DNA from: a virus
Virus record (IMG/VR): IMGVR_UViG_3300037071_003688
Strand: one strand, 5' to 3'
DNA length: 64,000 bases
Under the pieces are notes generated by a model that saw only the letters and a list, made by a program, of their open reading frames with translations, was not told where the DNA came from and did no database searches. Shown here piece after piece: positions 14,609-58,699 of this stretch (position 1 is its first letter; the number at the start of each line of letters is the position of its first letter). A program made the position numbers and the translations under genes.

Positions 14609-14661
14609 CCACGTCCGTGTAATCCCCGGGGGCTACCATGCTGCGACATGGCCGTGGGAGG

Positions 14662-16752
14662 ATGAACGTGGCTGCTCGACAGAAGGCCGACACCCGCAAG
14701 CTGCGACTGTTCGCCCGGGAAACGAAGCGCCACGGCGACTTCGCGATGGTGATGCCCCGTGCCACGGCCGGGTTGAAGCAGATCAAGGAAGGCTTCGAGC
14801 CACGCAACCTGCGTGACGGCTGGGCACGCGACGCCTACGTATTCGCCGACGAGATCGGCGAGGTCGGGTTCGTGATGAACCTGCAAGCCAACACCGGCGC
14901 CCAATGCGCGCTGCAACCCCAGAAGTACGACGTCGAGACTCGCCAGTGGTTGGAGACCGACGACGAGCGGGTGCTGCGAGTCCACGCCGCGTTCGTCGGC
15001 CCGCAGGGCGGCTCGGCCGAGTTGATGCGCCGCGGCTTCCTGCATCTCGGCATCGCCGGGGAAACCTTGCTGCTCGGCTCACCGGTCGATGAGGTCGACC
15101 TGAGCTACGGGCTGCACTGGGAGTTCCTGTCGTCGGAGGAGTTGGTGCTGCAACGCGGCGGCAAGGCCGTCCGCAAGTTCGACGGGAACAGCGGCGAAGC
15201 GTTGGGCGACGAGTATTACCTGGCCCGCATCTTCCGGTCGCACCCGATGTTCTCGGCGCTCGCCGACTCCCCGATGCGCCGCGTCCTGGCGATCTGCCAG
15301 GAGATCATCAACCTGACGCAGATGGTGTCGGGCATCGTCCGCTCACGGCTCGCCGCCGGGATCCTGTACGTCCCCGAGGAGATCACCTTCGCGACGGACG
15401 CCGACCCCGACGACCCGGACTCGGATCTCGATGAGGGCGACCTGCGCGACATGGTCGAGGTGTTCCTCAAGCAGTTGGCCGAACACCTCCGCGCCCCAGT
15501 CGAGGATCGCGCTTCGGCGGCTGCGCTCGTCCCCTTGTTGATGCGCGGCCCGGCCGAACTGTTCGACAAGATCGGTCTGATCGAAGTCGCGCGCGGCCTC
15601 GATACGTACGCCCAGGATCTCCGCAAAGAGGCACTCGCCCGGCTCGCCGCCGGACTCGACATCGACCCGGCGTTGATCGAGGGCGCGGCGTCGCTGAACC
15701 ATTGGACGCTGTACCAGGTCGACGCCAACTTCGTCACGAAGCAGGTCCGCCCGACCGGCGACCTGCTGGCCCGGGCGTTGACCGAGGTCTACCTGCGCAC
15801 CATGCTCGAAACGTTCGAGGGGATGGAGCCGACCGAGGTCCGCCTGTACCGGTGGATCTTCGACCCGGCCGCGATCATGGCCCGCACCGACGAAGCCGCG
15901 TCGAGCCGGATCCTGTACGACATGAACGTCCTCTCGGAGGACGCCCTGCTGCGCGCCAACGGCTTCGCCGACGCCGACGCCGTCGAGGACGACGAGTTGA
16001 ACAAGCGGCTCGCGATGCAGATGTTGCTGCGCGACCCGGCCAACATGGGGCCGGTCGTGTCCGATGTCCTCGGCCTCCAAGGCTGGGATTGGTCGAAGCT
16101 GCCATCCGCCGCCGGGGGCAGCCCGTTCGGGACACCGGGGGCGCCGGGCGCCCCGCCCGGTCCGGGATCGTTGGGAGCGCCTGCGCCACGCAAGGGGCTG
16201 CCACCATTGAACGCGACACCCCCGGCGAACGGTCAGCCGCCGAACCCGAACCAGCAGTTCCCGGACAAGACGACCGGGATGCAGGAACCACCGAACCCGG
16301 GCTTCTCGCTGCTCGTGGACCGCCTCGCGGTCGCCGCCGACGCCGCCGTCGAACGAGCATTGGAGAAGGCCGCAGCGCGGTTCGTCACGAAGGCCCGCCG
16401 CGTCGAGGGGTTGCGTCAACGCGTCGAGCACGTGCAAGGCACCGCGGTGCTGACCGCGGTGTCACCATCGGATCTGCTGTCGGTCGACTGCCCACCGGCG
16501 ATGCTGCTCGCCAAGGCGTGGGACTCGTTCGGCGACAACGCCCGCCGGTGGGTCAAGACCTACGCCATGAACCTCGGCGCCGATCAACTCTCCGCCGATG
16601 ACCTGGCCGCGCTCGCCTCCTCGAAGCTGTGCGAGTCGTTGCAGGAGTTGATGACGCTCAACATGCACGAGCGGCTCCCGGTCACGGGCAACGGCACCAA
16701 GGTCAACTCGGCTCTGATCTCCAACGCATTGCGTGCCGCCGGGGTCTGGTGA
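14662..16752 (+). CDS. portal protein
   Basis: about 700 aa, at the start of the head/MuF block; HP.....ADSP.R, SRLAAGILYVP.E, RLA.GLD and NHW motifs typical of actinophage portals; Pro/Gly linker then a C-terminal domain; start uncertain (14638/14662/14668). Confidence 0.8.
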   Translation: MNVAARQKADTRKLRLFARETKRHGDFAMVMPRATAGLKQIKEGFEPRNLRDGWARDAYVFADEIGEVGFVMNLQANTGAQCALQPQKYDVETRQWLETDDERVLRVHAAFVGPQGGSAELMRRGFLHLGIAGETLLLGSPVDEVDLSYGLHWEFLSSEELVLQRGGKAVRKFDGNSGEALGDEYYLARIFRSHPMFSALADSPMRRVLAICQEIINLTQMVSGIVRSRLAAGILYVPEEITFATDADPDDPDSDLDEGDLRDMVEVFLKQLAEHLRAPVEDRASAAALVPLLMRGPAELFDKIGLIEVARGLDTYAQDLRKEALARLAAGLDIDPALIEGAASLNHWTLYQVDANFVTKQVRPTGDLLARALTEVYLRTMLETFEGMEPTEVRLYRWIFDPAAIMARTDEAASSRILYDMNVLSEDALLRANGFADADAVEDDELNKRLAMQMLLRDPANMGPVVSDVLGLQGWDWSKLPSAAGGSPFGTPGAPGAPPGPGSLGAPAPRKGLPPLNATPPANGQPPNPNQQFPDKTTGMQEPPNPGFSLLVDRLAVAADAAVERALEKAAARFVTKARRVEGLRQRVEHVQGTAVLTAVSPSDLLSVDCPPAMLLAKAWDSFGDNARRWVKTYAMNLGADQLSADDLAALASSKLCESLQELMTLNMHERLPVTGNGTKVNSALISNALRAAGVW

Positions 16753-16758
16753 CCGATC

Positions 16759-19700
16759 GTGGCCACCGCCACGTTCGCCAATCCGTGGCATGACGAAATA
16801 GGTCGCTTCGCGCCCAAGGGAACCGGCACGAAGTTCGGCGCGACGCAGGACGAGATGCGGTCTCTGTTCGAGCCGGTGCGTCCGCTCGTGGACGTCCTCG
16901 AAGGCGCCGGTGCGAAGACCTACCTCGTGGGCGGCTCGGTCCGTGACCGGCTGCTCGGCATCGACGCCAAGGACATTGACATCGAAGTCCACGGGCTGAC
17001 CCCCGACGAGACCATCGCACTGTTGAAGGAACGGGGCGCCCGCGTCGATGAGGTCGGCAAGGCGTTCGGCGTGTTGAAGGTGACATTCGACGGCGAGACC
17101 CACGACTTCTCGTTCCCCCGCACCGAGGTCAAGACCGGCGAAGGCCACACCGGCTTCGATGTCACCGTCGACCCGAACCTCGGCATCGAGCAGGCGCTCG
17201 CCCGCCGCGACTTCACCATGAACGCGCTCGCCGTCGACTCCGACGGCAACATGGTCGACCCGTTCGGCGGGGTCGCTGACCTCAAGGCCGGTGTGCTGCG
17301 CCACGTCGGCCCGGCGTTCTCAGAGGATCCGCTCCGCATCCTGCGCGGCGTCCAGTTCGCCGCCCGCCTCGGCCTCAAGTTCGACCCGGAGACCGCCAAG
17401 CTCGCCCACGACCTGCTGCCCGAGTTGGAGAACATCTCGACGGAACGCGTGTGGGGCGAGTTCGAGAAGCTCGGCGGTAAGGGCGTCTCGATGGAGGCCG
17501 GTGTCCAGGCACTCAAGGACGTCGGTCTCGACACCCGCTACGGCAACGTCCACTTCGACGGCGAACCGAACCTGACCGGTCTCACCGGCGACCATCGCGC
17601 CGCCGTCGCGCTCACCGCGATCGGCGTCGACCCCCGCCAGATCGGAGCGCCGAACACCGTCTCCCGCACCATGCGCGACGTCAGCCAGGCGCTCGCGTTC
17701 ACCGGCGACCAGGCCGCATCCCGGACCGCGGCCCGCGAGTTGAAGTACGGCACGTTCGAGGACGCCGCCCGGATCGCAGGCCCAAACGACAACGTCGACC
17801 CACGTGTCCTCACCGGCCCACTCCCCGGACTCGTGACCGGCAACGACGTGATGGCCCGCGGTGTGCGCGGCTCAGCGATCGGCGAGGTCCTGCGCGCCGT
17901 GCAACAGGCCCAGGACAACGAGACCATCGTGACCCGCGAGGACGCGCTCGCCTGGCTCGACAAGCACGCCACCGCCGCTATCCGCCGCTCCGCCGCGTTC
18001 GTGAATCCGTGGCACGACGAGGTCGGACGGTTCGCCCCGAAGGGAACGGGACGCCGGTTCGAGCCGCGCGGCGGCGCCGACGCCCAAGCACAGGCGCTCG
18101 CAGAAGCGATGGCGACACGAGCCGAGTTGAACGGCGGGTTCACATTCGACCCGCGCGGCAACCTGTTCATCAAACCCGATCCGTCGCTGCCCCGCGAGGA
18201 ACATCGCGGCGCTGTCGCCGTGCCCGGCCATTCGGCGATCATCACGATGGAAGCCTTCCAGGACCCGACACGTGGCAAACAGTTCATCCGCGACTACCTC
18301 GACCAGCACGCCGAAACCATCGCCTCGCAACCGGACATCTTCATCGGCGGCTGGCACGACCGAGCGCACGGCGAGGTCGTGCTCGACCTGTCGCAGGTGC
18401 GCCCCCTCGATGAGGCGATCAAACTCGGGATCGAACGCGGCGAACAAGCGATCTTCGATCTCGACAGCGAGGAAGACGTCCCAACTCACGGGACAGGCGG
18501 ACGCGAGAACGTCAAGATAGTTGACGCATCGGGTCAGGGTTTGGTACGATTCAGTCATGGCAGATACCGCGGACCACCGCCAGCAGGCGCCGGACGTAAC
18601 GGTACGTCCGGGCGACCTGGAAGGCTGGGCGGACAAGTCCGAGGAGGAGAAGCAGGCGATCGTGGACGCCATGTACGAGGGTCTGAGTTCGCCAACCCCT
18701 GGCACGACGAGATAGGCCAGTTCGCGCCGAAAGGAACCGGCTCGACCGGGAAGGGCCGCTCCTCGAAGGCGGAGGAGGCCGCAGCGGCGAAGCTCGCCCG
18801 GGCGAAGGCCCGCAAGGTCCCGAAGCCGACCGAGGACGACGTGATCCAAGGCCAGGTCGACGCCCTCCTCGCGCGTGAGGGTTTGGTGCGCGCCGGTGGC
18901 GATCGGCGTGGCAACAACACGGCCCGGAAGAAGCGCGCCAAGGCGCTCGCCGCCGAGTTCGGCGACGGCACGACCTGCGCCTGCCCGGACTGCGGGCAGC
19001 GCATCGCGGCCGACGCGGCAACCGCCGAGAAGCTCGGCATCGACGCGCTCACGCAGGACAAGATCCTGGTGGGCACGTTGGGTGGCTCCTACAAGATGGA
19101 GAACCTGATCCCGACCTGCCCGCCATGCAACCAGTCGCGCGGCGACCGGGAGGGCATCGGTGTCGTCGGCGACGTGCGCCAGACGTGGGGATCAGCGGAA
19201 CGGTTCACGCGGACGGTGGTGCGTCAGCACGGCGACGCCATCGCTCAACGCTTCCAGGAGCGCCGGTCGGCGATCATGAAGCGCAAGGGGATCACGTGGG
19301 AGGAGCACATCGCCGAGAACCCGGACGCGCTCCCGCAGGACTTCGATCGGCTACGCCGCCCGGTCGGCGGGAACTTCGCCGTCGACGGCTGGACCCCCGG
19401 GGAGATCGTCACCGACTGGCTCGATCGTGTCGCCGTCAACGGCCACGCCGTCGACCATGAACTTCGTGTAGACGATCCCGTTCGAGTCGACTTCCCAGGT
19501 GAGCAACTCACCCTCGACCCCTGGGTCACCGACGATCGGGTTGTCGAGGTCATCGGGGGTGTCCCACCCGAACCGCTTGGCTCGCACGATCGTGCCGTCC
19601 TCAACCACAGACCGCAGCGTAGCGAGTTCGGCAACCCGTGGCATGACGAGATCGGTCAGTTCGCGCCGAAGGGCACGGGCACCAACTTCGCCAACATCGC

Positions 19701-22008
19701 CCGTCGCGCGGACGAAGCGGAAGCGGCCGGATCGCAGATCTCAGAACTCGACCTTGAGCAGGCCGCACTGCTCGATGACCGGCTGCGCGAGTTCGGGAAG
19801 GCGATGGGCAGCGACTTCCAGAACGACGACGGCGTCAGGCTGACCCATCACGCACTCGACCAGCGGCATGGGCGTGGGACGATGAACGGACTCGCCGCCA
19901 CCAACCCGGATGGCGTGGTGCTGGGCGCGATCGCCTACAACAAGAACCCCGGCGACTACCACATCGAGTTCCTCGGCTCGACCGGTCTCGTCAAGGGCGT
20001 CGGTTCGCAGTTGGTGATCCCCGTGATGGAACGGGCCGCAGCCGATGGGGCAAAGGTGACACTCAAGGTCGCCGGGACAAAGAGCGCCGCCTCGTTCTGG
20101 GAGTCGCTCGGCTTCGAGCGGGACTGGGAGAGCGCCACCGGCGCCACCATGCAGCCCGCCGACGTGCAGGCATGGGTGGCGAATCTCAACCGCGAACGCG
20201 AGGGTGTCTTGGTCGGCGCAGGCGCAGCACCAGAAGGATGGGATCCCGACGACGACCGCTGGGCTGCCCACGCGATCGAACTCGGGCTGATGTCCATTGT
20301 CGCCTCCGCGGCGCAGTTCATGAACCCGTGGCACGACGAGGTGGGTCGGTTCGCGCCGAAGGGGACCGGGCGCAAGTTCGGTAAGCACGTCTCGTGGCAT
20401 GTCGGCTCAAACGGCTACGAGGTGATGCACAACGGGAAATGGGTCCGGACGCCGGAAGCCATCAAGCACTACGGCGCGCTCGAAGTAGCGCAGCACATGT
20501 CGCCGCTCGAAGCCCGTCAACTCCGTGAGGAGTTGGAAGGCCAGACGATGATCGACCTTCTCAATGACACGGACGTTCAGTACAAGGCAACGGCATCGCT
20601 GGCGGTCCTGACTCACGACCCGAACTTGCACGGCAAGGAAGGTTTCGAGCATCTTCAACGTCAAGTCACCTTCGCCAAAGAGGCCGACCTCGGGCTGGTG
20701 ATGCAGTTGTACGCCGCAGAGCAGTTCGCCTCATGGGAACACTCCGGGGTCGACATCGCCCTGTTGAAGGAAGCCACGCAGGCGCACATGCGCGGTGAGA
20801 TTGACGCCGCCTCACTGTCACGGATGATCACCGAGCAGTACGGGATCACGGTCGAATCGGGCGCCGTTGGCTGGTTCAACCGGGCCTGGCAGATCTCCGC
20901 CGTCTCCCACGAATCAACTGCGATGCAGATCCAGATCGCCGAGCAACGCGGTCTAAGCGCAGCCGATGCGGCGATGCGCGACTACGTCGGCGACTCGACG
21001 CTGGACAAAGCCAACGATCTGACGTGGTCGATGGGAGCGACGATCAACGCCGTGACGTCGGCTCACATCCGCAACACTGAGGAGAAGCTGACCCAGGCCC
21101 CGGAACTGGCGTTGCCGACGATCCACCGAGGCTTGAAGGGTGAACAGTTCACCAGCATCCAGGCCGGTGACACGGTCCAGTCGAACCCCTTGTCGTCGTG
21201 GTCGTTCGACCCGAACCAGGCCGAGCACTTCGCCACCAACTTCATCGACACACAAGGGATCGTGATCACCACCGAGTTCAACCCGGCCAACGTGCTCACC
21301 ATCAGCGACATCAGCGGCATGGGATCACTGGACGAGCGAGAAGTGATCATGATCGGCGAACCGGTCAAGGTCACCCGCGCTCGTCTTCCAACGAAGCCCA
21401 GCGGTTGGGCAGTGATCCCGGAGAACGTGTACCTGATTGACACCCCGGAGAACGTCGACTGGATCACCCGCGAACCCGACGAAGCTCTGACGGCATCGGC
21501 GGCCAAGTTCGCGAATCCGTGGCATGACGAGATCGGACGTTTCGCGCCGAAGGGTCAGGGCAGCACGTCCGGCGGGCTGGACAACGAGGAGGCTGACGCC
21601 GAGTTCGAGGAGAAGTACGGCAACGAACGCCGATCCGGCGACGGCGACTGCTTCGAGGTCGGTTTGCACTTCATCCACTCCATCCCTCGCGGCGAGGAGG
21701 ACCGCTACAAGCTGTGTCACGGCGTGCCCGAGGGCCAAGGCCCGATCGAAGGCGTCCGCTTCGATCACTGCTGGATCGAACGAACCGACCCGCTCCCCGA
21801 GACCATGACCCCCGAGCAGCGGGCGATGTTCGAGCAGTACGAGATGAACATCACCGTGATCGACAAGTCGAACGGCAACGATGTCGAGATGCCCCGACTG
21901 CTGTACTACCAGTTGGGCAGCATCAATCCTCGCGACGTCCGCCGCTACACACCAGACGAAGCCCGCCGCGAGGCCGTCCGAACCGGGGTTTACGGGCCGT
22001 GGACATAG
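16759..22008 (+). CDS. polyprotein 1 (6 tagged modules): CCA-adding tRNA nucleotidyltransferase / unknown domain / HNH / GNAT / ADP-ribosyltransferase-like / papain-like Cys hydrolase
   Basis: YLVGGSVRD..KDIDIEV..RRDFTMNA..EDPLRILR; CPDCG..GGSY..EN....CPPCN; IEFLGS..KGVGS..FWESLGF; HRG..SSWS..EREV; GDCF..HCWIE; six NPWHDE.G.FAPKG tags. Confidence 0.9.
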   Translation: MATATFANPWHDEIGRFAPKGTGTKFGATQDEMRSLFEPVRPLVDVLEGAGAKTYLVGGSVRDRLLGIDAKDIDIEVHGLTPDETIALLKERGARVDEVGKAFGVLKVTFDGETHDFSFPRTEVKTGEGHTGFDVTVDPNLGIEQALARRDFTMNALAVDSDGNMVDPFGGVADLKAGVLRHVGPAFSEDPLRILRGVQFAARLGLKFDPETAKLAHDLLPELENISTERVWGEFEKLGGKGVSMEAGVQALKDVGLDTRYGNVHFDGEPNLTGLTGDHRAAVALTAIGVDPRQIGAPNTVSRTMRDVSQALAFTGDQAASRTAARELKYGTFEDAARIAGPNDNVDPRVLTGPLPGLVTGNDVMARGVRGSAIGEVLRAVQQAQDNETIVTREDALAWLDKHATAAIRRSAAFVNPWHDEVGRFAPKGTGRRFEPRGGADAQAQALAEAMATRAELNGGFTFDPRGNLFIKPDPSLPREEHRGAVAVPGHSAIITMEAFQDPTRGKQFIRDYLDQHAETIASQPDIFIGGWHDRAHGEVVLDLSQVRPLDEAIKLGIERGEQAIFDLDSEEDVPTHGTGGRENVKIVDASGQGLVRFSHGRYRGPPPAGAGRNGTSGRPGRLGGQVRGGEAGDRGRHVRGSEFANPWHDEIGQFAPKGTGSTGKGRSSKAEEAAAAKLARAKARKVPKPTEDDVIQGQVDALLAREGLVRAGGDRRGNNTARKKRAKALAAEFGDGTTCACPDCGQRIAADAATAEKLGIDALTQDKILVGTLGGSYKMENLIPTCPPCNQSRGDREGIGVVGDVRQTWGSAERFTRTVVRQHGDAIAQRFQERRSAIMKRKGITWEEHIAENPDALPQDFDRLRRPVGGNFAVDGWTPGEIVTDWLDRVAVNGHAVDHELRVDDPVRVDFPGEQLTLDPWVTDDRVVEVIGGVPPEPLGSHDRAVLNHRPQRSEFGNPWHDEIGQFAPKGTGTNFANIARRADEAEAAGSQISELDLEQAALLDDRLREFGKAMGSDFQNDDGVRLTHHALDQRHGRGTMNGLAATNPDGVVLGAIAYNKNPGDYHIEFLGSTGLVKGVGSQLVIPVMERAAADGAKVTLKVAGTKSAASFWESLGFERDWESATGATMQPADVQAWVANLNREREGVLVGAGAAPEGWDPDDDRWAAHAIELGLMSIVASAAQFMNPWHDEVGRFAPKGTGRKFGKHVSWHVGSNGYEVMHNGKWVRTPEAIKHYGALEVAQHMSPLEARQLREELEGQTMIDLLNDTDVQYKATASLAVLTHDPNLHGKEGFEHLQRQVTFAKEADLGLVMQLYAAEQFASWEHSGVDIALLKEATQAHMRGEIDAASLSRMITEQYGITVESGAVGWFNRAWQISAVSHESTAMQIQIAEQRGLSAADAAMRDYVGDSTLDKANDLTWSMGATINAVTSAHIRNTEEKLTQAPELALPTIHRGLKGEQFTSIQAGDTVQSNPLSSWSFDPNQAEHFATNFIDTQGIVITTEFNPANVLTISDISGMGSLDEREVIMIGEPVKVTRARLPTKPSGWAVIPENVYLIDTPENVDWITREPDEALTASAAKFANPWHDEIGRFAPKGQGSTSGGLDNEEADAEFEEKYGNERRSGDGDCFEVGLHFIHSIPRGEEDRYKLCHGVPEGQGPIEGVRFDHCWIERTDPLPETMTPEQRAMFEQYEMNITVIDKSNGNDVEMPRLLYYQLGSINPRDVRRYTPDEARREAVRTGVYGPWT
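18511..18550 (+). promoter_or_regulatory. internal promoter within polyprotein 1
   Basis: GTCAA-N5-TTGACG-N18-TACGAT with TGn extension; ATG at 18557. Confidence 0.7.
18557..18715 (+). CDS. overprinted small acidic protein (52 aa) in another frame of polyprotein 1; candidate immunity protein
   Basis: own promoter and leaderless ATG; normal GC3 codons, while the polyprotein frame here is G/R-rich and shadow-like. Confidence 0.6.
   Translation: MADTADHRQQAPDVTVRPGDLEGWADKSEEEKQAIVDAMYEGLSSPTPGTTR
19351..19644 (-). CDS. antisense overprinted acidic protein inside polyprotein 1; candidate immunity protein
   Basis: DGTIVRA...VEGELL...YTKFMVDG..VD.DTIEPV resembles the C-terminal half of ORF 57217-57552; plus-frame codons here are atypically A/T-ending; start uncertain. 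Confidence 0.55.
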   Translation of the reverse strand: MPRVAELATLRSVVEDGTIVRAKRFGWDTPDDLDNPIVGDPGVEGELLTWEVDSNGIVYTKFMVDGVAVDGDTIEPVGDDLPGGPAVDGEVPADRAA

Positions 22009-25000
22009 CGCCGACCATCCCCGTCCCGACCACAGAGGCAGAGATCGGAACCCTGCGCGTCCCGATCGACCCCGACGATCCGCTGCTCGCCGATCAGACG
22101 CTCGTGGCGTCGGCCGGGATCATCGCCGACTTCGAGGACTCGTACCTCGATGAACTGACCGGCGCCGTCGAACAGTCGTTGCGATCACTCCGCCAGATGG
22201 TCGTGCAACGCCTCCGCGCGCACGCCACCATCGCGAAACCGATCGCTGCGTCGGCCGCACGCAACGGCCAGTTCATGAACCCGTGGCACGACGACCGAGG
22301 CCGCTTCGCTCCGAAGGGGACCGGCCGCGCGAACGCGATCCGGACGTGGGGCACCGACCGCAAGGTCACCATCGAGAAGTGGGTGTCGGGTCACAAGCAT
22401 TCGGTGACGACCTCGAACGGCGACGTGATCGTCCTCCACGACCACAACAACGTCCTGTCGCAAAGCCCCGGCGGCGAGCAAGCCATCAGCGACTTGTTGA
22501 ACGGCGCCGCCGACGCACATGACCTGTGCCCGGGGATGAACGTCCCGCAGATCATGGTCAAGAACGTCGACGGGCTGATCGCCGACATGGCCGCGCTGCA
22601 TGACATGCAACGCGTCGAATGGGAACGGCTCCGCAACGTCGGCGCGTTCGTCACCGGCAACAGCCCGGACGGCAATAAGGCGCCGGGCTGGATCTTCGTC
22701 AACCCGGACCGGCTGCACAGTGAGCAGCTTTACGCCCAGGATGACATGCCCGCCATGATCGCTCTCGGCCCGGCCCGCTACAAGGTGATGCACGAGTACG
22801 GGCATCTGCGCATGACCCAAGGTCTCGACTCGGTGTTCGCGATCAACGATCAGTTCAAGTACACGAGCGACTCGCGTCGCAGCGGCGGGATGTCGAAGTA
22901 CGGCAACACGAAACCGATCGAGGCGCACGCCGAGGCGTTCGCCGAATGGGCGGCACGCGGCGGCAACATCGAGCGCGGCCCGAAGGGCCAGTTCCTCACC
23001 GACATCGACTATGTCGTCACGTCGTACGCCAACGCGTTCGGGTGGGGCAAGGACCTCGAACAGGTCGGCCGTCCGCTCGCCGTCGCTGCCGCCGGTGGGC
23101 CGCAGGACCCGATCCCGTTGATCATCGGTGACAGCCCGGAAGGCCCGATCTACATCTACGCGGACGGAACCATCGAGGAGACGCTCGTCGCCTCCGCCGG
23201 GCAGTTCATGAACCCGTGGCACGACGAGATCGGCCGGTTCGCCCCGAAGGGGACCGGCCGCTACATCAAGGTGCTCGGCGAGTTCCCCGGCGAACCGTCG
23301 CAGGAGATGTTGGCGAACGCCGACTTCCGCTACCAGGCCGACATGGGCAAGCGGTTTACGTGGCTGTGGCAACGCACCTATCAGACGCATCGAGCGGTGA
23401 AGCAGATCGCCCGCAATCTGCTCGCCGGGAACGAGCCGTTCGACGGGGTCGATCTCAACGACCCGCTCTTGGAGCGGTACTCGAAGCCATCCCGCTTCGC
23501 GGGCGGCCCCAAGCACGAGTACAACGAAACCGATCTCCACAACGATCTGCAAGCCGCAGCCGAATGGATCCTGGTCCAGCCCGTCGAGAAGCAGCCCGTG
23601 CTCTACCGCGGGGCGATGACCGACGAATCGAAGATGGGTGTCTTCAAGGTCGGTGCTGACATCCCGCTCGACCTGGTCTCGGCGACACCGGACCGGTTCG
23701 AGGCCGCGCCGTACTCGTCACCATTCGGTTCTCCCACGTCCTACCTCGACCCGGTCCGGCTGTCGTTCCAGTTCACCGGCGCCGAAGGCACGAGCCTGCG
23801 TCCGCATGTGACCGGCAACATGAGCGACTCGAAGGAAGTCGTGATGCGGGGACGCGGCCGGATCACACGGATGGAGAAGAACGAGCACGGGATCTGGCAG
23901 ATCTGGGTCGACGCCTCGAACGCCCAAGAGGAGGCGTTGGCCGCGTCGATCGGCGACGACGCCGTGATCCTGGCGATCCTCGACCAACCGTTCCACCACT
24001 ACGACGAAACCGGCGCGCTCGTCGCCGCCGCCGGGCAGTTCATGAATCCGTGGCACGACGAGATCGGTCGCTTCGCGCCGAAAGGCACCGGCGTCAAGCG
24101 GCTCGGCCCGAAGACCCTCAACGACGACCCGACCGCCTACGACAAGGTCGATCTCGATGACATGGAGGCAACCAAGGCCAGCCTCGAAGCGTACGCCGAC
24201 CATGTGACCGCGGAACTCGCCGACATGTTCCCCGGCGAGGAACTCATCTTCGGCCTTGACGAGTATCACAAGATCGCCAAGAGCACCCGGCCCCCCGAAT
24301 ACCATGCTCAGTTTCGGCTGACGAACGCTGACGGCGAAGACGTGGCGAAGATGGCGCGGGTCATCGAGATGGAGGATGACAGCGCATTCGCTGCCGGGAT
24401 GTGGGTTGACGACTCGATGCAGGGCAAGGGCATCGGCACCGTGCTGCAAGAGGGCTTCGAGCACTGGGCGGCATCGCAGGATCTCAGTGCGATCAACGTG
24501 TTCGCCACGATGGTCGGCCGGTGGGCGTGGATGCGCGCCGGTTATGACTGGGCGAACACCGAAGCGTTCGGCGACATCGCCAACCTGCTCGGCGACGCCG
24601 ACCCAGTCGGTCGCTCATTCAGGCGGGCGTGGCAGGACGTCACCATCCCTGACGATCTACCAACGCCGTACGAGTTGTCGAACATTCTCGGTCGCAAAGC
24701 GATCCTCCATCCGCAGTTCCCGAACTGGTCGGGCACCAAGCCGCTGCGCACCCGGGCACTGGCACTCGCCGCCACCGCCATAGCGCCCCGTGAGGAGCGT
24801 CTCGCCAAGGTGCGCGAGGCGTACGCCCAGTGGTGGCCGCAGTACCCGGCCGCGGCCGAGGGCTACATCGTTGACCCGGAGGCCGAGGCCGCATGGGAAG
24901 CGTTGATGCAGGGCGGGCTGGTCGCGGCGGGGCCGTTCGATCTGGACGACTTCAACGTGATGACCGCCGAGGAGTGGGCGCTGGCGTTCGATGTCGAGGC

Positions 25001-26792
25001 AGCGGACATCGTCGGCGATGTCGTCGTGGACGCCGCCACCGGTCAGGCGCTCCGCCCCGGCCTGAACGTGTCGGACAAGATCATCACCGATCTCGTGGAC
25101 CGCCACATCGGACGGCTCCAAGATCTCGGCCCGCTCGTGCAAGCCTCACTGCGCGACGCGCTGCACCTCGCCGTCTCCAACCAGTTGACGCTCGATGAGG
25201 TCATCCGCGAGATCCAAGCCACCGGACCATTGGGAGCAACCGCGGCACGCGCGATCGCACGCACCGAACTCACCGCCGCCACGAACGGCGGGATGTTGAC
25301 CGGATGGAAACGCGACGGGTTCCCGTTCAAGCAATGGATCAGTCTTCACGACGAACGTGTCCGCCATGCGCACCTCGAAGCCGACAAGCAGATCAAACCG
25401 ACCGAGCAGGAGTTCGAGGTCGGCGGCTGGCCCGCCCAATACCCCGGCGACCCACGCCTCCCGGTGCATCTGCGCATCAACTGCCGCTGCTACATGGACC
25501 GCATCGGTGAAGATGGCACGACCATCGGCACACGGCTGGTCGACTCGACCCGCGCCACGCTGTACCGCCTCGCCCAAGAGTTGAACATTCCGGGCCGCTC
25601 GAAGATGCTGAAAGAGGACCTGTTCCAGGCGATCGACCGGTACCGCAACGGGTTCGGGTTCCAACCATTGGAGGAGATGTCCCGGGCGCAACTGCTGATC
25701 CGTGCCCGCGCGGCGGGGATCGTCGGCCGCTCGAAGATGTCGCGCCCCGAGTTGATGATCCGCTTGCGCGACCTGTCGACCGGTCGGACCCGTGACCGCT
25801 GGCTGATCGACGCCGGGCACGGCACCCGCGAACAGATCGCCGCCGTCCAAACCCAACTCGCCGCCGACATCGCCGCGCTGCACCAAGGTCCGATCGTCGG
25901 CGCCGGACCGCCACCATCAGTCGAGAAGGTCGACACGATGCGCCGCAAGGTGTTCCGCCGCTACGGCGGCGCCGACACCGGCACCGCGATGTGCGTCGGC
26001 TGCGCGGCCCGGATGCACTGGTCGAACACGACACGCTGGGAACAGGTGACGCTGATCCGGATCGACCCGAAGATCTCGTGGTCCGCCCGCAACGCGTTCC
26101 CGGCGTGCCTCGCCTGCGCCCCGAAGCTCGCCAAGCTCGGCACGGAGAAGCTCTCGGCGACGTTCACCATCGACAACTCATGGACGGCGATCGCCGCCAC
26201 GTTCACCGGCTGGGGACCGATCCTGGCCCAGTTCGCGAACCCGTGGCACGACGAGCAAGGCAAGTTCGCGCCGAAAGGCACCGGCAAGAAATACGACTCG
26301 GCGGCGATCAAGGCCAAGGTGAAAGCGTCGATGGAGGCCGGGGTCAACGTCGACCGCGTCGGCGACCCGCAGGCGACGCTCTCCAAGCTCGACGCCTGGG
26401 CCAAGCAGATGGGATCCGACTTCGACGCCGACGAAGGGGTCGGCATGATCCGCGAAGCGTTGAATGACGTCGGGGCTGGCTCGAAGTCGTTGATCGCCAA
26501 CCACAAGAACGGGATCGCCGGGATCATCTCGTACGACTACGACCCGGACAGCAAGATGTACATGATCCATCACCTCGGCTCGACCGGGATCGCCCCCGGG
26601 ACCGGCACTCGGCTGGCGACTCAGGTCATGATCCAAGCCGCGTCGAACGGTGCTGGGGTCGAGTTCGAGGCAGCCCAGAACGACACCGCTCCCGAGTTCT
26701 GGTCGTCGCTCGGCTTCGATGTTTCCGACCCCAAGCACGTCGTGATGAGTCCATCCGATGTCGGCGCCTGGATGCGAGACTTCACGGGATGA
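21999..26792 (+). CDS. polyprotein 2: MuF minor head protein carrying zincin metallopeptidase, ADP-ribosyltransferase-like, two GNAT, two Rho-N-like and a degenerate HNH-like module
   Basis: HEYGH..SKYG...EAHAEAF; LYRG..VSAT..KEVV; QGKGIG..W...GY; ARAIARTE..KQW...D.RVR.AH..YPGDP..INCRC (MuF); IPGRSKM.K.DL-like repeat twice; GTG start overlaps the preceding stop; four tags. Confidence 0.9.
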   Translation: MDIAPTIPVPTTEAEIGTLRVPIDPDDPLLADQTLVASAGIIADFEDSYLDELTGAVEQSLRSLRQMVVQRLRAHATIAKPIAASAARNGQFMNPWHDDRGRFAPKGTGRANAIRTWGTDRKVTIEKWVSGHKHSVTTSNGDVIVLHDHNNVLSQSPGGEQAISDLLNGAADAHDLCPGMNVPQIMVKNVDGLIADMAALHDMQRVEWERLRNVGAFVTGNSPDGNKAPGWIFVNPDRLHSEQLYAQDDMPAMIALGPARYKVMHEYGHLRMTQGLDSVFAINDQFKYTSDSRRSGGMSKYGNTKPIEAHAEAFAEWAARGGNIERGPKGQFLTDIDYVVTSYANAFGWGKDLEQVGRPLAVAAAGGPQDPIPLIIGDSPEGPIYIYADGTIEETLVASAGQFMNPWHDEIGRFAPKGTGRYIKVLGEFPGEPSQEMLANADFRYQADMGKRFTWLWQRTYQTHRAVKQIARNLLAGNEPFDGVDLNDPLLERYSKPSRFAGGPKHEYNETDLHNDLQAAAEWILVQPVEKQPVLYRGAMTDESKMGVFKVGADIPLDLVSATPDRFEAAPYSSPFGSPTSYLDPVRLSFQFTGAEGTSLRPHVTGNMSDSKEVVMRGRGRITRMEKNEHGIWQIWVDASNAQEEALAASIGDDAVILAILDQPFHHYDETGALVAAAGQFMNPWHDEIGRFAPKGTGVKRLGPKTLNDDPTAYDKVDLDDMEATKASLEAYADHVTAELADMFPGEELIFGLDEYHKIAKSTRPPEYHAQFRLTNADGEDVAKMARVIEMEDDSAFAAGMWVDDSMQGKGIGTVLQEGFEHWAASQDLSAINVFATMVGRWAWMRAGYDWANTEAFGDIANLLGDADPVGRSFRRAWQDVTIPDDLPTPYELSNILGRKAILHPQFPNWSGTKPLRTRALALAATAIAPREERLAKVREAYAQWWPQYPAAAEGYIVDPEAEAAWEALMQGGLVAAGPFDLDDFNVMTAEEWALAFDVEAADIVGDVVVDAATGQALRPGLNVSDKIITDLVDRHIGRLQDLGPLVQASLRDALHLAVSNQLTLDEVIREIQATGPLGATAARAIARTELTAATNGGMLTGWKRDGFPFKQWISLHDERVRHAHLEADKQIKPTEQEFEVGGWPAQYPGDPRLPVHLRINCRCYMDRIGEDGTTIGTRLVDSTRATLYRLAQELNIPGRSKMLKEDLFQAIDRYRNGFGFQPLEEMSRAQLLIRARAAGIVGRSKMSRPELMIRLRDLSTGRTRDRWLIDAGHGTREQIAAVQTQLAADIAALHQGPIVGAGPPPSVEKVDTMRRKVFRRYGGADTGTAMCVGCAARMHWSNTTRWEQVTLIRIDPKISWSARNAFPACLACAPKLAKLGTEKLSATFTIDNSWTAIAATFTGWGPILAQFANPWHDEQGKFAPKGTGKKYDSAAIKAKVKASMEAGVNVDRVGDPQATLSKLDAWAKQMGSDFDADEGVGMIREALNDVGAGSKSLIANHKNGIAGIISYDYDPDSKMYMIHHLGSTGIAPGTGTRLATQVMIQAASNGAGVEFEAAQNDTAPEFWSSLGFDVSDPKHVVMSPSDVGAWMRDFTG

Positions 26793-29700
26793 GCTTCGAC
26801 CCGGACGACGACCGCTGGGCCGAACGCGCAGCCGAGGTGGCAGTGACCACCATGACCCTCGAACCAGGCGGCGAGTTCACCGTCAAGTTCCGGGCCACCG
26901 AGTTCAACAACCCGTGGCATGACGAGATCGGACGGTTCGCGCCGAAGGGTTACGGGCACATGGGCGGCAACAAGTACAGCCGTGAGGTCGCGGTCCCCCG
27001 CAGCGTCGAGGACGCCGCCGCTGTGTACGCGGCGATGACCCTGTACAACGCCGTCAACCGTGGAGACCCGATGCCCGCCATCCACGAAGCCCTCCACGCG
27101 CTGATCAAGACAGCCGAGGCCGCAGACCAGGACCTCATGGAACGCCTGATCAAACCGGCCGCGCGGGCAATCGGCGACAACGACATGGACACGGCGCACG
27201 AGTTGATCGTTGACGCCGACAGCGAGGTGTTCAAGCCGTTCACCGAGGAGTTCGAGGTCCCGCCACCGGAGAAGATCACGGTCACCGGCGGGCAACCCCC
27301 GGAGTCCGGCTTCGGCCCGACGATCTGGCAGACCGTCACCCCCGAAGGGCACACCATCACGTTCAACAGCCGCGGTCACACCGTGACCGACGAACAGGCG
27401 TACACGATCCTGTCGGCAGCGACGACCGCGGCGCGCGCCGGGAACATGGACCAAGACGTCACCATCCAAGTCCAAGCCTCGTTCAACCGGGACACGATGT
27501 CGCGCGAGCCACTGGTGATGGGGTTCGTCGTCGCCAACCCGGACATCGGCACCGACCCGCATCGAACCGTCAACATCACACCCGAGTTGATCAACGGTAA
27601 CTTCGACCCGGGCGGGAGCACCGAGCGCATCCCGTCGACGTTGACGGCATCAGCGGCGCTCGTGGAACCGTTGCGGATCACCGTGCTGCACGAGATGGGC
27701 CACGTCTCGTTGTTCGAGGAGGCGTTCCACCGGCAAGGCGATCTCACGCAGGGCAAGGAATGGTTCAACGAGCAGATGATTCAGACGGCGAACACGACGC
27801 CGATCACCGACAAGCCGTTCATGTCGCTGTACGCCCAGGAGAACACGACCGAGATGCACGCCGAAGCGTTCGCTGAGTGGACCAACACCGGCGGCAACAC
27901 GAACAACCCGTGGGTGCTACGCATGGCCGACCAGTACGGCTGGTCGACGGGCCGCGCCGCCGAAGACCTGCCATTGGCCGCGGCAGGGGCGCCACCGATC
28001 GAGCCGTGGGTGCCGATCTGGTACTTCCCGGAGGAGCCGGTCATCCTCATCGACAGCCGCGACGGCGCCAGCTACGTGTACGGCGACGCGGCGCTCGCCG
28101 CCACCGAACCCGTTGTCGCCTCCGCCGGGCAGTTCATGAATCCTTGGCATGACGAGATCGGACGGTTCGCCCCGAAGGGGACCGGCTCCAAGTTCGACGC
28201 AGTGAGCGCGATGCAGGACGTGCAGAACGGCAAGCCGGTGTCGGTCACCGGCGTCGAGGCCGTCGACCTCGCGTTGGAGATGGCCCGGCTTTACCATCCG
28301 ATCGACATGACCCTCGTCACGGTCGACGGGTCGCACATGTTCAGTGAGATGCGAGCGAACGGGCGGTCACGGGTCGAGATGCCGCAGATCCCCGGCAAGT
28401 TCCACCCCGCCTTCGAGGAGCACCTGCGCGAGTTGGGTGTGACCATGACTCCGGAGACGATCGACCCCCGCGAGTTGCACGGCACCCAATCCGAGTTGGA
28501 CGGTCAGGCAGTCGGCAACATGATCCAGTCCTACCGGGACGGCGGCTTCAACTTCACGTCGAAGCCGTTGGTCGTCTCCTCCGACAACCGGATCCTGGAC
28601 GGTCACCATCGTTGGGCCGCGGCGGCGATCGAGTCCGCGGCGTGCGGCGGCTGCATCGAGATGCCGATCATGCGTGTCGACCTGCCGATGAGCGAACTGC
28701 TCCACGTCGCCGACGACTTCGTGGACAGTCTCGGCATCGTCCGTCAGGGCCACGGCGAGCACGGAAAGCACAGCCCGCAGCCGCCGCCCCTGCACGAGAA
28801 GATCGCCGCGGCTGTCATCCCACCATCGCAGAATGAGCAGGTGGAGTTCGAGTACGCGACCGACACCGATGACGGGATCACCGACGAGCAACTCGCCGAC
28901 CTGCCACACGGCGACGGCTCCGCGTTCGAGGAGGGGGAGGGCGTGGTCGCTTCCCCCGCCTCGTTCGCCAACCCTTGGCACGACGAGATCGGACGCTTCG
29001 CGCCCAAGGGCACCGGCACGAAGATCGGCTTCGACGCCGACGCCGCCTCCAACCAGTTCGCCGACGATCTCGCCACACTCAACGCCAACGCCGACGCGAT
29101 GGCCGAGCCATACCGCATCCACTACGAACGCGGCGGCGAGAAACAGTCGACGTTCGCTCAGGCCCGCGACGAGTACCTCGCCTACGGCTCATCGGAGATG
29201 GACCGCCAACTCCGCACCAACGGCGACAGCACAGTCAAGGATCCGGCGCACCGGCGGGCGCTGATGAACGCCGTCGTGCTCGATGAAGCCATCGAACGGT
29301 CCGGTGTCGTGTTCGCCGAGGACACCGTCCTGCTGCGCGGCGTGCGCAACACGCAGGCCGGGAACCTGACGGTCGGCACCGAGTTCACCGATCCCGCGTT
29401 CGTGTCCGTGACAGCGTCACCCGGCGAAGCCGCGCAGGCGTCCGGGCAGCAACAACGCCCGGCCGGTTTCCCACCCTCGGCGAACCCGGGCACCATCGTC
29501 GCGTTGAAGGTCCCGAAGGGAACCAAGGCGATGCCGGGCGCCGAGAACGAGAAGGAATGGGTGCTGCCACGTGGCGGCACGTACACCGTGACGAACGTGA
29601 TCGAGGGCGACGGGGTCCGCATCGCCGAGGTCGAGGTGACATTCCCCGAGTCGCCGCCGGTGACGAAGGGGATCCCAACCATCAACGACTTGCTCGAACG

Positions 29701-30319
29701 GACCGCGGGGCAACAAGAACGCCGCGGCCTCGCCGCCTCCGCCGGTGGCCTCATCGTTCACGAGCGCCTCTCATGGGATCCCGCCGACATCGACGTGATG
29801 ACGAACCGCCGCCAGTTCCGGCTGATCTGGGATGCGGGTGTCCTCGCCGACGCCACCATCACGCGTGCCGCGTTCGGCAACCCGTGGCATGACGAGGTCG
29901 GGCGCTTCGCGCCGAAGGGCACCGGCAAGCAGGTCGCCGCCGAGGGCCGGGCACGTGAACTGTTGGCCGGGGAACGAATCGCGCTCGCCGATGTCGACGT
30001 GCCAATGGGAACCCCCGAACAGATCAAGTTGACGACCGACACCCGCGACGACGACGCCCTGTGGGAAACCGCCACACCGATCAAGGTCTCGGCGCAGGAC
30101 AAGTTCGTCGCATCCGAGGAATCCGTCAAGACACGACCGGTGCGCGACGTCGTGCTCGACGGCGAAGCATTCCGACCCGGCTACCCGCCCCGCCTGTACC
30201 AGTTGCCGGACGGCAGCTACCTCGTCGCTGACGGCCACCATCGAATCGTGATGCACAAGCTGCTCGGCACCCCGAGCTTCGACGCAATCGTGCTGCCCTA
30301 TCCGGAGGAGAAGCAATGA
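26789..30319 (+). CDS. polyprotein 3: zincin metallopeptidase / ParB-Srx-like / VIP2-like ADP-ribosyltransferase / ParB-Srx-like
   Basis: HEMGH..SLYA..E.HAEAF; TQ..SSD.RILDGHHRW; LLRG..DPAFVSVT..EKEWVLPRG; LVADGHHR; four tags. Confidence 0.9.
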   Translation: MSFDPDDDRWAERAAEVAVTTMTLEPGGEFTVKFRATEFNNPWHDEIGRFAPKGYGHMGGNKYSREVAVPRSVEDAAAVYAAMTLYNAVNRGDPMPAIHEALHALIKTAEAADQDLMERLIKPAARAIGDNDMDTAHELIVDADSEVFKPFTEEFEVPPPEKITVTGGQPPESGFGPTIWQTVTPEGHTITFNSRGHTVTDEQAYTILSAATTAARAGNMDQDVTIQVQASFNRDTMSREPLVMGFVVANPDIGTDPHRTVNITPELINGNFDPGGSTERIPSTLTASAALVEPLRITVLHEMGHVSLFEEAFHRQGDLTQGKEWFNEQMIQTANTTPITDKPFMSLYAQENTTEMHAEAFAEWTNTGGNTNNPWVLRMADQYGWSTGRAAEDLPLAAAGAPPIEPWVPIWYFPEEPVILIDSRDGASYVYGDAALAATEPVVASAGQFMNPWHDEIGRFAPKGTGSKFDAVSAMQDVQNGKPVSVTGVEAVDLALEMARLYHPIDMTLVTVDGSHMFSEMRANGRSRVEMPQIPGKFHPAFEEHLRELGVTMTPETIDPRELHGTQSELDGQAVGNMIQSYRDGGFNFTSKPLVVSSDNRILDGHHRWAAAAIESAACGGCIEMPIMRVDLPMSELLHVADDFVDSLGIVRQGHGEHGKHSPQPPPLHEKIAAAVIPPSQNEQVEFEYATDTDDGITDEQLADLPHGDGSAFEEGEGVVASPASFANPWHDEIGRFAPKGTGTKIGFDADAASNQFADDLATLNANADAMAEPYRIHYERGGEKQSTFAQARDEYLAYGSSEMDRQLRTNGDSTVKDPAHRRALMNAVVLDEAIERSGVVFAEDTVLLRGVRNTQAGNLTVGTEFTDPAFVSVTASPGEAAQASGQQQRPAGFPPSANPGTIVALKVPKGTKAMPGAENEKEWVLPRGGTYTVTNVIEGDGVRIAEVEVTFPESPPVTKGIPTINDLLERTAGQQERRGLAASAGGLIVHERLSWDPADIDVMTNRRQFRLIWDAGVLADATITRAAFGNPWHDEVGRFAPKGTGKQVAAEGRARELLAGERIALADVDVPMGTPEQIKLTTDTRDDDALWETATPIKVSAQDKFVASEESVKTRPVRDVVLDGEAFRPGYPPRLYQLPDGSYLVADGHHRIVMHKLLGTPSFDAIVLPYPEEKQ

Positions 30320-46488: not shown

Positions 46489-47091
46489 CTACTGCCACTC
46501 ATCCCAGCGGCGACGCTCGGTGTACGGAACGAGGCCGATCGGATCCCAGTTCTTGTCGCCGAGGTCCTCGTCCAGACCTTCCATGAACTTGTCGACCAAC
46601 TCGTGAAGCTTGCGCTTCACCCGGTCCCTGAGCGGCGGCTTGATGTCATGGACGCCGTCCAGTGATTCCTTCAACACCCGGTTCACCTCGCCGTAGAAGT
46701 CATCGACCTGGCTGCTCTTGACCAACGGCCGCGAGGCCGCCCCGCCCTTCGGCAACGGGTTCAGCCACGGCAGAGGACTCGGACCGCCACCATCGGGGGC
46801 GACGCTCGTGTTCTTCGCCACGATGTCGCCGCCCTCGCGGCGGCGGACGTCGGACCAGGGTGGATCGTCTTCGCCTGGCGGCATGAGGGCGCCGATCGAG
46901 TCCTTGAGTAGCTCGATGTCCGAGTCGCGCAGCCGTGGGCGTCCGCGCAGGAAGATGTCGATCTCGTCCTCGATCTTGCGGCGCAACGACCCGGGCTGCG
47001 ATTCGCTCTTGGCCACGATGTCGCCGCCCGACTTCGTGCCGGTCCCCTTCGGCGCGAAACGCCCGATCTCGTCGTGCCACGGGTTCGGCAT
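46489..47091 (-). CDS. stand-alone protein beginning with the NPWHDEIGRFAPKGTG tag
   Basis: starts MPNPWHDEIGRFAPKGTGTK; internal GGDIVAK repeat; CATACT -10 box just upstream of the ATG. Confidence 0.85.
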   Translation of the reverse strand: MPNPWHDEIGRFAPKGTGTKSGGDIVAKSESQPGSLRRKIEDEIDIFLRGRPRLRDSDIELLKDSIGALMPPGEDDPPWSDVRRREGGDIVAKNTSVAPDGGGPSPLPWLNPLPKGGAASRPLVKSSQVDDFYGEVNRVLKESLDGVHDIKPPLRDRVKRKLHELVDKFMEGLDEDLGDKNWDPIGLVPYTERRRWDEWQ

Positions 47092-56608: not shown

Positions 56609-57217
56609 ATGGCCATCGGTCAACGGGACACGTACGGTCGGATTGTCAACACCGGCGCGCTGCTTCAACAACTCTGCGCTCGGTGCGGCACTTCGTTCAC
56701 CGTGTTCCGGAGCGATGTGAACCGTGGACGTCGCTTCTGCTCACCGAAATGCGCAGGCGTGGATCTGTCCGAGCACCGGCGCGGTCCGACTCACCACCGC
56801 TACCGGCGAGCGACGACACGCTGTGAGATCTGCGGCGTCGCCTTCGAGCACGTGCCAGCCAAGCGTCGGCGGTTCTGCTCGAAGTCCTGCTCGAACAGAT
56901 CCCGCAAGTACCCAAGTGGGTCGGCGAACCCGAACTGGCGGGGCGGCGTGGCAGCCCGGTGGCGGAACTTCTACCTCACCCCCGAATGGATCGCCGTTCG
57001 CGACGCCGTGCTTCAACGTGACGGATGGCGCTGTCAGCACACCGGATGCCCGGGACGGCGAGGGAAGTTGCACGTGCATCACATCATCCATCTCGGAGAT
57101 GGCGGCGCTCCGTATAACGACGCCAACCTAATCACGCTCTGCGGTGGTTGCCACACGGGGCACCATCGGCGAGGCGACGTGCTTGTGTTCGATCCGCCCC
57201 GACCGGGGGTGCAGTGA
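56609..57217 (+). CDS. HNH endonuclease with N-terminal zinc-finger repeats
   Basis: CxxCG..F...FCS..C twice, NPNW.GG, RD...CQ..LHVHHI..NL.TLC..CH. Confidence 0.9.
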   Translation: MAIGQRDTYGRIVNTGALLQQLCARCGTSFTVFRSDVNRGRRFCSPKCAGVDLSEHRRGPTHHRYRRATTRCEICGVAFEHVPAKRRRFCSKSCSNRSRKYPSGSANPNWRGGVAARWRNFYLTPEWIAVRDAVLQRDGWRCQHTGCPGRRGKLHVHHIIHLGDGGAPYNDANLITLCGGCHTGHHRRGDVLVFDPPRPGVQ

Positions 57218-57552
57218 TGCCAATGGGACCGTACCGGAACTTTGCGGACTGCGTCGCCAAGAACCAGGACAAGGCCAACCCGGAGGCGTATTGCGGCAAG
57301 ATCAAGCACCAGGCCGAAGGCGCCGTGTTCGCCACCGGGCGCGGCGCGCAGGACGGCGACTGGGTGCGCGCCCGGCCGATGAGCATCGAGGACACGGGGG
57401 ACATGATCGTCGGCGGCGCCCCCCACCCGGCGCCGGTCACCGGGCTGCTCACCATCGTGCGCTCGAAGCTCCCGGGCGTGTCGCGCTACTCGGTCGCCGG
57501 TCTCACCGTCGACCCGGCGACGATCACCGTCGTGGCTCCACCATCGCAATAG
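57217..57552 (+). CDS. small head-module protein
   Basis: MP.GPY..F.DCV..N.DK..PEAYCG.I N-terminus; lies before the 2H/protease/MCP genes. Confidence 0.65.
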   Translation: MPMGPYRNFADCVAKNQDKANPEAYCGKIKHQAEGAVFATGRGAQDGDWVRARPMSIEDTGDMIVGGAPHPAPVTGLLTIVRSKLPGVSRYSVAGLTVDPATITVVAPPSQ

Positions 57553-57562
57553 CCTGCGTTCG

Positions 57563-58699
57563 ATGGGCGCAGTGATCGTGCTACTCCCCGCCGACCCGGC
57601 GGCGCTCGCAGCGGACGACGGCGACCCGGCGGAGGAACTCCACGTCACCCTGCTGTACCTGTCCGACGAGACGCTGCCGCCCGACCAGTACGCGCTCGTG
57701 TCCGAAGCTGTCGCCTCGTGCGCGTCGATGCCGCCGATCGACGCCGACGTGTCCGGCGCCGGGATGCTCGGCAAGGACGCCGCGATCGTGCTGATCCTCG
57801 AATCGCAAGAGATCATGGATGTGCGCGCGCAACTCAAGGACGCCTGCGCGGCGTTGATGAACGACGCCGTCCAGTTCCCGTCGTTCATCCCGCATCTCAC
57901 CATCGGCTACGCCGACTCCGTCGAGCACGGCCAATCCCTCCTCGATCACTGCCTGCCGATGGTCGGCGACGTGATCACGCTCGACCGCCTCGCCTGCTTG
58001 AACGGCGACGAACGCCACGAAACCCCGCTCGGCGCCGCCGCCGAACCCGCCGAGGTCGACATCGAGTCCGATGTCTACTCGGAACCGATCTTCACATTCG
58101 CCGCCCCGGCAGCGGTCCCGCCGCCGGTGCCGGGCGCGGCTGCTCCCGCCCCGGGTCCCGCCCCGGGCGCGGGAGCACGTCCGAAGCGACAGGTGATCCT
58201 GGTCGGGATGCCGGTGGTCGATCCGAGCAAGGTGCCGTACAAGCCGACCGGCCTGCCGTACCAGTCACCGGAGCCGTACGTCGCGCTGCTCGAAGTCAAG
58301 CTCCGCCAGAACGAGGTCCCCGAGCAACTCGCCCAGGTGCTCGGGGACGTCCACCCGCCACCCGCCACGTCGACGGCGACGAAGTCGCTGACCGCATCGG
58401 ACACACGCCCGGCACGACGCGCGGTGCTGATGGACCCGGCACCATTGGCCGCGGCGTCCGACGCGATCAAGGCCGCGCTCGAACCGTACGGCACGACCGT
58501 CGATGACTACCCGTTCGTCGTGCAACTCGGCAACGAAGGCATCAGCAAAGCGGACGTGGTGGCATTGAAGGGCCAAGCGGTCGACTTCGCCGGACTGATC
58601 GCAGTCCTCCCGGACGGCACCGTGATCCACGAGGACAAAGGCCAGAGCGCGCCATCGACCACTGAGCCGACGACGGCCGATACTGTTGCGGCGACGTAG
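57563..58699 (+). CDS. 2H phosphoesterase (2'-5' RNA ligase-like)
   Basis: two HxT motifs: LHVTL and PHLTI. Confidence 0.85.
   Translation: MGAVIVLLPADPAALAADDGDPAEELHVTLLYLSDETLPPDQYALVSEAVASCASMPPIDADVSGAGMLGKDAAIVLILESQEIMDVRAQLKDACAALMNDAVQFPSFIPHLTIGYADSVEHGQSLLDHCLPMVGDVITLDRLACLNGDERHETPLGAAAEPAEVDIESDVYSEPIFTFAAPAAVPPPVPGAAAPAPGPAPGAGARPKRQVILVGMPVVDPSKVPYKPTGLPYQSPEPYVALLEVKLRQNEVPEQLAQVLGDVHPPPATSTATKSLTASDTRPARRAVLMDPAPLAAASDAIKAALEPYGTTVDDYPFVVQLGNEGISKADVVALKGQAVDFAGLIAVLPDGTVIHEDKGQSAPSTTEPTTADTVAAT

Follow-up and report, generated by a model that had tools for sequence, protein, structure and literature searches.

In phage lambda the gene Rz1 lies inside Rz, a nested phage gene that is read from the same strand as the gene around it. 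Embedded genes on the opposite strand have been described in laoB of E. coli O157:H7 (PMC5810103) and among the long antisense ORFs of Pseudomonas aeruginosa (PMC8850804); few antisense embedded genes are proven, and the reports present these as novel frames that arose by overprinting (PMC5810103, PMC8850804). Among the reference genomes of tailed phages, a minority have annotated antisense overlaps of 50 nt or more (PMC7017920), and for viral overlaps Pavesi et al. (2013, PMC3744397) presented a codon-usage rule that separates ancestral frames from those that arose de novo. Large multifunctional products are known from the polyvalent virion proteins, including MuF fusions, of Iyer et al. (2017, PMC5512222).

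The window analysed here is a stretch of 64,000 nucleotides that forms part of a 147-kb IMG/VR virus record (IMGVR_UViG_3300037071_003688) present in soil metagenomes. In it, a portal gene (14638-16752) is followed by four giant ORFs across 16759-32595, and within the first of these, polyprotein 1, lies a small ORF on the opposite strand that appears, from its homologues and codon usage, to be an old gene turned backwards. Polyprotein 1 resembles the polyvalent proteins of Iyer et al. (2017) in being giant, multi-domain and adjacent to the portal, and in its association with nucleotidyltransferase, HNH, GNAT and MuF-type domains; a 2H phosphoesterase in the head module of this phage is a further likeness. 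However, the part of that account drawn on here (PMC5512222) is silent both on opposite-strand nested genes and on a 16-aa tag repeated ahead of each module. As in laoB and the P. aeruginosa genes, coding is on opposite strands and the shorter gene is fully embedded. In those cases the embedded frame is novel and overprinted, whereas here the embedded frame is the old one and the long frame the newcomer over 77 codons; moreover, expression was shown for those genes, whereas P0001, the product of the small ORF, is known from sequence alone. The situation agrees with the rule of Pavesi et al. (2013) in that the minus frame is typical of the genome and has homologues, and the plus frame is atypical and derived, although that rule covers same-direction overprinting in small viruses and here a neighbouring ORF would have been extended through an inverted gene.

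The coordinates of the relevant features are collected in Table 1. A peptide tag, NPWHDE-x-G-x-FAPKGTG, is present in 17 copies in the four giant ORFs, and the domains of polyprotein 1 are a nucleotidyltransferase, an HNH and a GNAT domain, the HNH core matching the HNH genes of Microbacterium and Gordonia phages only over about 18898-19153. P0001 is a protein of 97 aa encoded by the minus ORF at 19351-19644, whose codons lie in exact antiparallel register with the codons of polyprotein 1 (16759-22008). Its ATG is the reverse complement of a His codon (CAT) in the NPWH of tag 4, just as the sequence-only reading had observed when it stated that the tag itself supplies the start codon.

Table 1. 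Features of the nested locus and of the related head-module genes (positions in the window).
Feature	Coordinates	Strand	Remarks
Polyprotein 1	16759..22008	+	1749 aa, six tags; antiparallel read-through of the nested gene
HNH module and C-terminal extension	18898..19413	+	Upstream of the nested gene
P0001 tail	19351..19413	-	20 codons and stop (TAG, 19351-19353); beyond the ends of homologues
Nested gene core	19414..19644	-	P0001 residues 1-77; family domain from VRAK to TIEPV; identified by homology and codon signature
Candidate start GTG (V20)	19585..19587	-	Matches family N-terminus M-x-VRAK; ATG at the equivalent place in L002
Shine-Dalgarno-like GAGGA	19598..19602	-	10 nt before the GTG; in L002, GGAGG 11 nt before the ATG
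Promoter-like ATGCCA (19644-19639), N17, TACGCT (19621-19616)	19616..19644	-	Relaxed scan
Tag 4 of polyprotein 1 (NPWHDEIGQFAPKGTG)	19633..19680	+	First codons overlap those of the minus ORF
P0002, canonical head-module paralogue	57217..57552	+	111 aa; N-terminal Cys motif, C-terminal family domain
2H phosphoesterase-domain protein	57563..58699	+	Adjoins P0002; L003 has the family domain fused to a domain of this type

Several observations concern the tags themselves. Tags 3 and 4 (18685-18741 and 19624-19680) are the only ones of the form SEF-x-NPWHDEIGQF, with Q and not R; neither has the upstream ASA-type site seen before many other tags, and each comes after a stretch that natively codes in a frame other than that of the polyprotein. 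The sole tag outside the four polyproteins, which is also the sole tag on the other strand, lies at 47000-47100, where a free-standing minus-strand gene begins with MP and passes at once into a perfect tag (NPWHDEIGRFAPKGTG). A candidate degenerate tag at the left junction of the nested gene (NFAVDGWTPGEIV) received no support from the tag profile and was discarded.

Codon usage over the nested gene favours the strand opposite to the polyprotein. The plus frame had been characterised beforehand as an antisense shadow with atypical codons, and GC1, GC3 and codon log-odds all agree with that description: across 19414-19548 the plus frame has a GC1 of 0.87-0.90 and a GC3 of 0.60 (0.68 and 0.83, respectively, for the whole ORF), and a codon model trained on the long ORFs of this phage assigns 40.3 bits to the minus frame over 19414-19644 and 16.0 to the plus frame. 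This difference of +24.3 lies 3.6 SD above the mean of -40.8 (sd 18.1) obtained across 696 equally long windows from the long ORFs of this genome; seven of the 696 reach it, one being this locus and the other six falling at two other loci. Throughout the four polyproteins (16 kb), another frame outscores that of the polyprotein in just two internal stretches, namely 18529-18738 (the +1 frame) and 19399-19578 (the antiparallel frame). Homology is confined to residues 1-77 of P0001 (19414-19644, 231 bases), and its end, at residue 77 (19414), coincides exactly with the end of the codon anomaly; over the remaining tail (19351-19413), the plus frame has normal GC3 and codon usage. Contigs from four other soil runs, among them contigs covering 19327-19849, 19394-19673, 19276-19444 and 19435-19704, show zero differences over both junctions, and the backward layout is not an assembly artefact. 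The soil runs yielded identical fragments only at this locus, with no close variants.

The other anomalous stretch was noted in passing. At about 18526-18738, the +1 frame (ORF 18521-18715) has good codon usage and the polyprotein frame gives a junk-like sequence full of Gly, Arg and Pro; a strong site, TTGACG-N18-TACGAT, ends 6 nt 5' of an ATG at 18556, and soil-run contigs match the anomaly at 18.5-18.8 kb without indels. Together with Rz1, this ORF resembles the nested gene in being a small, complete gene within a larger phage gene whose own frame is uninterrupted there, but both are same-strand cases, whereas P0001 is encoded on the opposite strand and without a strong promoter.

A search for relatives of P0001 among 1.8 billion representative proteins returned P0004 (E 8e-12), P0008 (E 2e-4) and P0010 (E 4e-4). 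Small relatives of 67-96 aa include P0004, P0006, P0010 and P0011, and P0008 carries the family domain as an in-frame N-terminal fusion with a 2H phosphoesterase; the closest relative is P0007. A profile search contributed ten further small proteins that share the N-terminus M-x-VRAKRLGW. As used here, the family consists of small phage proteins of 70-90 aa, bears no family name, and includes P0002, P0032 and the N-terminus of P0008. A profile built from free-standing or same-strand members only detects P0001 with an E-value of 6.1e-15 (52.8 bits) over profile positions 5-74, that is, over the whole domain, so that the resemblance to a protein family on which the antisense-gene proposal depended is significant. 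When all six-frame ORFs of the 147-kb genome were compared with the same profile, 2 of 2634 matched: P0001 and P0002. P0001 has also kept every one of the nearly invariant residues of the family (V20, R21, A22, G45, V64, G66, D70, T73 and I74). Its homologues end 0-3 residues past TIEP, whereas P0001 goes on for 20 residues more. Because free-standing members (in L005/L006 and L003) have stops in the antiparallel frame, the family must be translated in the sense of the minus ORF.

Searches of Pfam and PHROGs assigned no family to P0001, to P0002 or to the plus-frame peptide past the HNH domain, and megablast and tblastn against cultured phages gave zero matches for the region, P0001 or P0032. 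Scans of IMG/VR and GTDB genomes with P0001 or alignment A4 added zero further loci, and a word-based protein search with P0001 alone gave zero matches. An AlphaFold model of P0001 (pLDDT 68.6) folds as a small beta-rich domain, for which fold searches of BFVD and the PDB gave zero significant matches; the weak ones involved SH3-, Tudor- and Sm-like barrels and a 73-aa protein of Streptomyces phage Omar. Neither a PDB profile search nor the ESM Atlas supplied any usable match.

The genomic position of the family is regular. In the longer contigs, the locus is arranged on one strand as portal, MuF, small gene, a protease/scaffold-like protein of ~650 aa and a major-capsid-like protein of ~630 aa, and the small gene comes right after MuF or a MuF-bearing polyprotein in L009, L012, L010, L011, L003 and L015 (in L003, 3' of a MuF-ART fusion and a separate 192-aa ORF). 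P0001 departs from this position, being antisense and within polyprotein 1; the canonical place in this phage is occupied by P0002, in a head module (56.6-63 kb) with the order HNH gene, P0002, 2H phosphoesterase-domain protein, protease/scaffold-like protein and major capsid protein. The position after MuF and the fusions (to 2H in P0008, and to the Cys motif) point to a head-assembly or cargo-related role of the family.

The sequence-only reading had aligned the minus-frame protein by eye with the C-terminal half of the ORF at 57217-57552 (i.e., P0002), and this likeness proves real, if remote. Direct BLASTP between P0001 and P0002 is not significant (E 0.07), but the P0001 family profile finds P0002 with 88% probability (E 3e-6), a pairwise comparison of that profile with the profile of P0002 orthologues in hhalign reaches 95% (E 2.7e-8), and BLASTP of P0001 against one such orthologue, P0015, gives an E-value of 5e-6. 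A GWD motif is kept in the P0002 orthologues and lost in P0002. Context agrees as well: a 2H protein follows P0002, and in P0008 the small domain and 2H are fused. This evidence supports P0001 as a remote paralogue of the C-terminal half of P0002. As for the rest of P0002, its N-terminal third (57217-57320) carries a Cys motif, G-x-Y-x-x-F-x-x-C-V ... NPEAYCG-x-I, which also occurs in proteins of 168-169 aa with Pfam PF14550 (P0024, P0025).

The overlapping layout is found in relatives. On a 2.2-kb soil contig (L002), the small gene, P0004, is antisense and 53% identical to P0001; its ATG lies within the reverse complement of NPWH, and the open antiparallel frame runs into a tag (SEFFNPWHD) and an ART-like module. 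The sense frame there has a GC3 of 0.87 and a GC1 of 0.76, and reading the small gene in the polyprotein frame gives a junk-like peptide rich in Gly, Val, Arg and Pro. L004/L014 have an intact small gene, but stops confine their antiparallel frame to about 140 codons, and the tag has decayed to NPWHGETERP. The intact minus ORF is thus kept in the relatives with the overlap (L002 and L004/L014), and the frame that shows decay, where one does, is that of the polyprotein. From comparison with L002 and L004/L014, the tag overlap is ancestral to at least three lineages that now stand at ~50% amino-acid identity, and because it is shared by a relative at about 50% amino-acid divergence, the layout is old. 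When the window is compared with L002, the sense frames share 53% of their amino acids and the antiparallel frames 37%, at a crude dN/dS of 0.56 and 1.24, respectively; these distances are saturated, and the ratio comes near 1 even for some pairs of free-standing genes.

Other contigs show how the borders of such modules vary. L004 (1-147) and L014 (183-326) match almost perfectly along the gene but lose all resemblance immediately past the tag relic, which points to a probable recombination breakpoint at the module border. In L015, a phage with tagged polyproteins, the small gene has its canonical sense orientation, directly 3' of a polyprotein. One ORF of this contig (L015:2131-5142, minus) comprises two tags, a ParB-like region and a further segment that is homologous to the C-terminal part of 57563-58699, with protease/scaffold-like sequence; cargo tags and head-maturation functions are here found within one polyprotein. 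A tag-like string beside P0011 (L007/L008) lies in a frame that differs from that of the neighbouring gene and was rejected.

On the plus strand, direct reading of the polyprotein frame finds no start codon (ATG, GTG or TTG) from 19414 to about 19804, and codon usage is normal in tag 4 and the 790 codons that follow. Because no in-frame start precedes them, tag 4 and the three modules behind it need read-through of the backward gene. Both strands are indeed open, as had been pointed out at the start; that they are kept so by special selection does not follow, since an antiparallel stop can arise only opposite TTA, CTA or TCA, codons with a combined share of 0.5% in this phage, and an antiparallel frame stays open over 77 codons with a probability of about 0.67 (median open run, about 90 codons). 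Judged from family membership and codon usage, the minus frame is the ancestral, family-bearing frame, and the plus frame is derived over these 77 codons.

The N-terminus of the family suggests that the real start may be the GTG at 19587 rather than the ATG within the tag: the GTG of the window and the ATG of L002 both stand at the family's usual N-terminus. A relaxed promoter scan of the minus strand over 19560-20100 returned one site, of a kind that occurs about once per 4.6 kb. The site is weak, with 4/6 and 3/6 matches to consensus, and the Trp-His codons of the tag, read on the opposite strand, supply its first hexamer, ATGCCA; at the corresponding position L002 has a site of the same build (ATGCCA-N17-TACCGT). 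A stricter consensus scan yielded zero promoters for the minus ORF, and the strong TTGAC-N17/18-TAnnnT sites, ten in the 147 kb, are all on the plus strand, one of them just before the +1 ORF at 18521. Several of these strong sites have a start codon or a hairpin-like GAGGG..CCCTC within a few bases downstream. As support for expression, the conserved start signals of the nested gene are no more than suggestive, the two loci being homologous and constrained on both strands.

We consider it probable, though well short of assured, that the minus ORF is a functional nested antisense gene, a judgement for which two or three loci, all on short contigs, were available for comparison. Its history would have begun when a copy of the small head-module gene was inverted and the reading frames on either side then became joined, and the plus strand would now turn the 77 codons into a spacer peptide leading into tag 4; inversion and fusion would be easy because the antiparallel stops correspond to the rare codons TTA, CTA and TCA. 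Transcription would proceed from the weak promoter-like site overlapping the tag on its complementary strand, and translation from the GTG at 19587, behind GAGGA, would give a protein of about 78 aa. With the stop after TIEP lost, 20 foreign residues would be appended to this product. A regulatory role, in which an antisense transcript from a promoter on the reverse-complemented tag and its protein, the paralogue of a head-assembly factor, would time or restrain the toxic cargo polyprotein (e.g., early, before capsids), is a speculative extension that we regard as rather unlikely; if true, a single short motif would double as a signal in the protein and, from the opposite strand, as a start of transcription. 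A relic is conceivable and, though doubtful, merits more weight than that extension: the small gene would have been inverted and left unexpressed, its DNA only a spacer before tag 4 and its minus-frame signature a leftover. The negative standard promoter scan, the restriction of strong sites to the plus strand and the loss of the native stop speak for a relic, as does the plus frame, which is certainly needed and whose openness costs little. However, long drift should have cost family residues and moved the codons toward plus-frame usage, whereas the window and L002, at ~50% divergence, keep an intact ORF, the invariant residues and a sense GC3 above GC1, and in L004/L014 it was the polyprotein frame that decayed and the small gene that did not.

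The captured partner or immunity gene of the sequence-only reading, which would neutralise or chaperone the neighbouring HNH nuclease in the producing cell, has in its favour that both family copies adjoin an HNH protein (18.9-19.4 kb and 56609-57217). Yet these two HNH proteins are not specifically related, having only the HNH motif in common (E 0.064); the small gene follows MuF, and not HNH, in L009, L012, L003 and L015, and in L002 the neighbouring module is ART-like. There is no co-variation with any one toxin domain, the neighbours being HNH, ART-like, plain MuF or a 2H fusion, and a fixed position in the head module, after MuF whatever the toxin-like domain, is unlike that of a toxin-specific immunity gene; we therefore regard this part of the proposal as unsupported and improbable. 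A shadow ORF that arose by chance, with no coding history, might be expected where antiparallel frames are often open, as they are at this GC3 (with a median run of about 90 codons), but it is refuted by the match to the free-standing profile (E 6e-15), by the rarity of such matches (2/2634 ORFs) and by the codon difference of 3.6 SD, and retains next to no probability. Scarcely any more can be given to an invertible, shufflon-like segment, a flip of which would bring the small domain in frame with the polyprotein: because the segment is exactly 77 codons long and codon-aligned, inversion would preserve the reading frame, but there are no inverted repeats at 19414/19644 (the best arms, of 10-12 nt, are misplaced), a flip would destroy the NPWH part of tag 4, and contigs from four other soil runs show one orientation, with the proviso that contigs drop rare variants.

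The nested antisense gene is thus a well-supported case of an old, family-bearing gene that lies backwards in a far larger phage gene, whose own translation must run straight through it. In high-GC DNA an antiparallel frame meets almost no stops, and giant cargo polyproteins may therefore grow by swallowing their neighbours in any orientation. Standard gene callers would miss such a nested gene, since they report the polyprotein or the small gene but never both. If it is expressed, the gene would be a useful case in the debate on functional antisense proteins of prokaryotes and viruses, because it is homology, and not the length of an ORF, that establishes its coding history.
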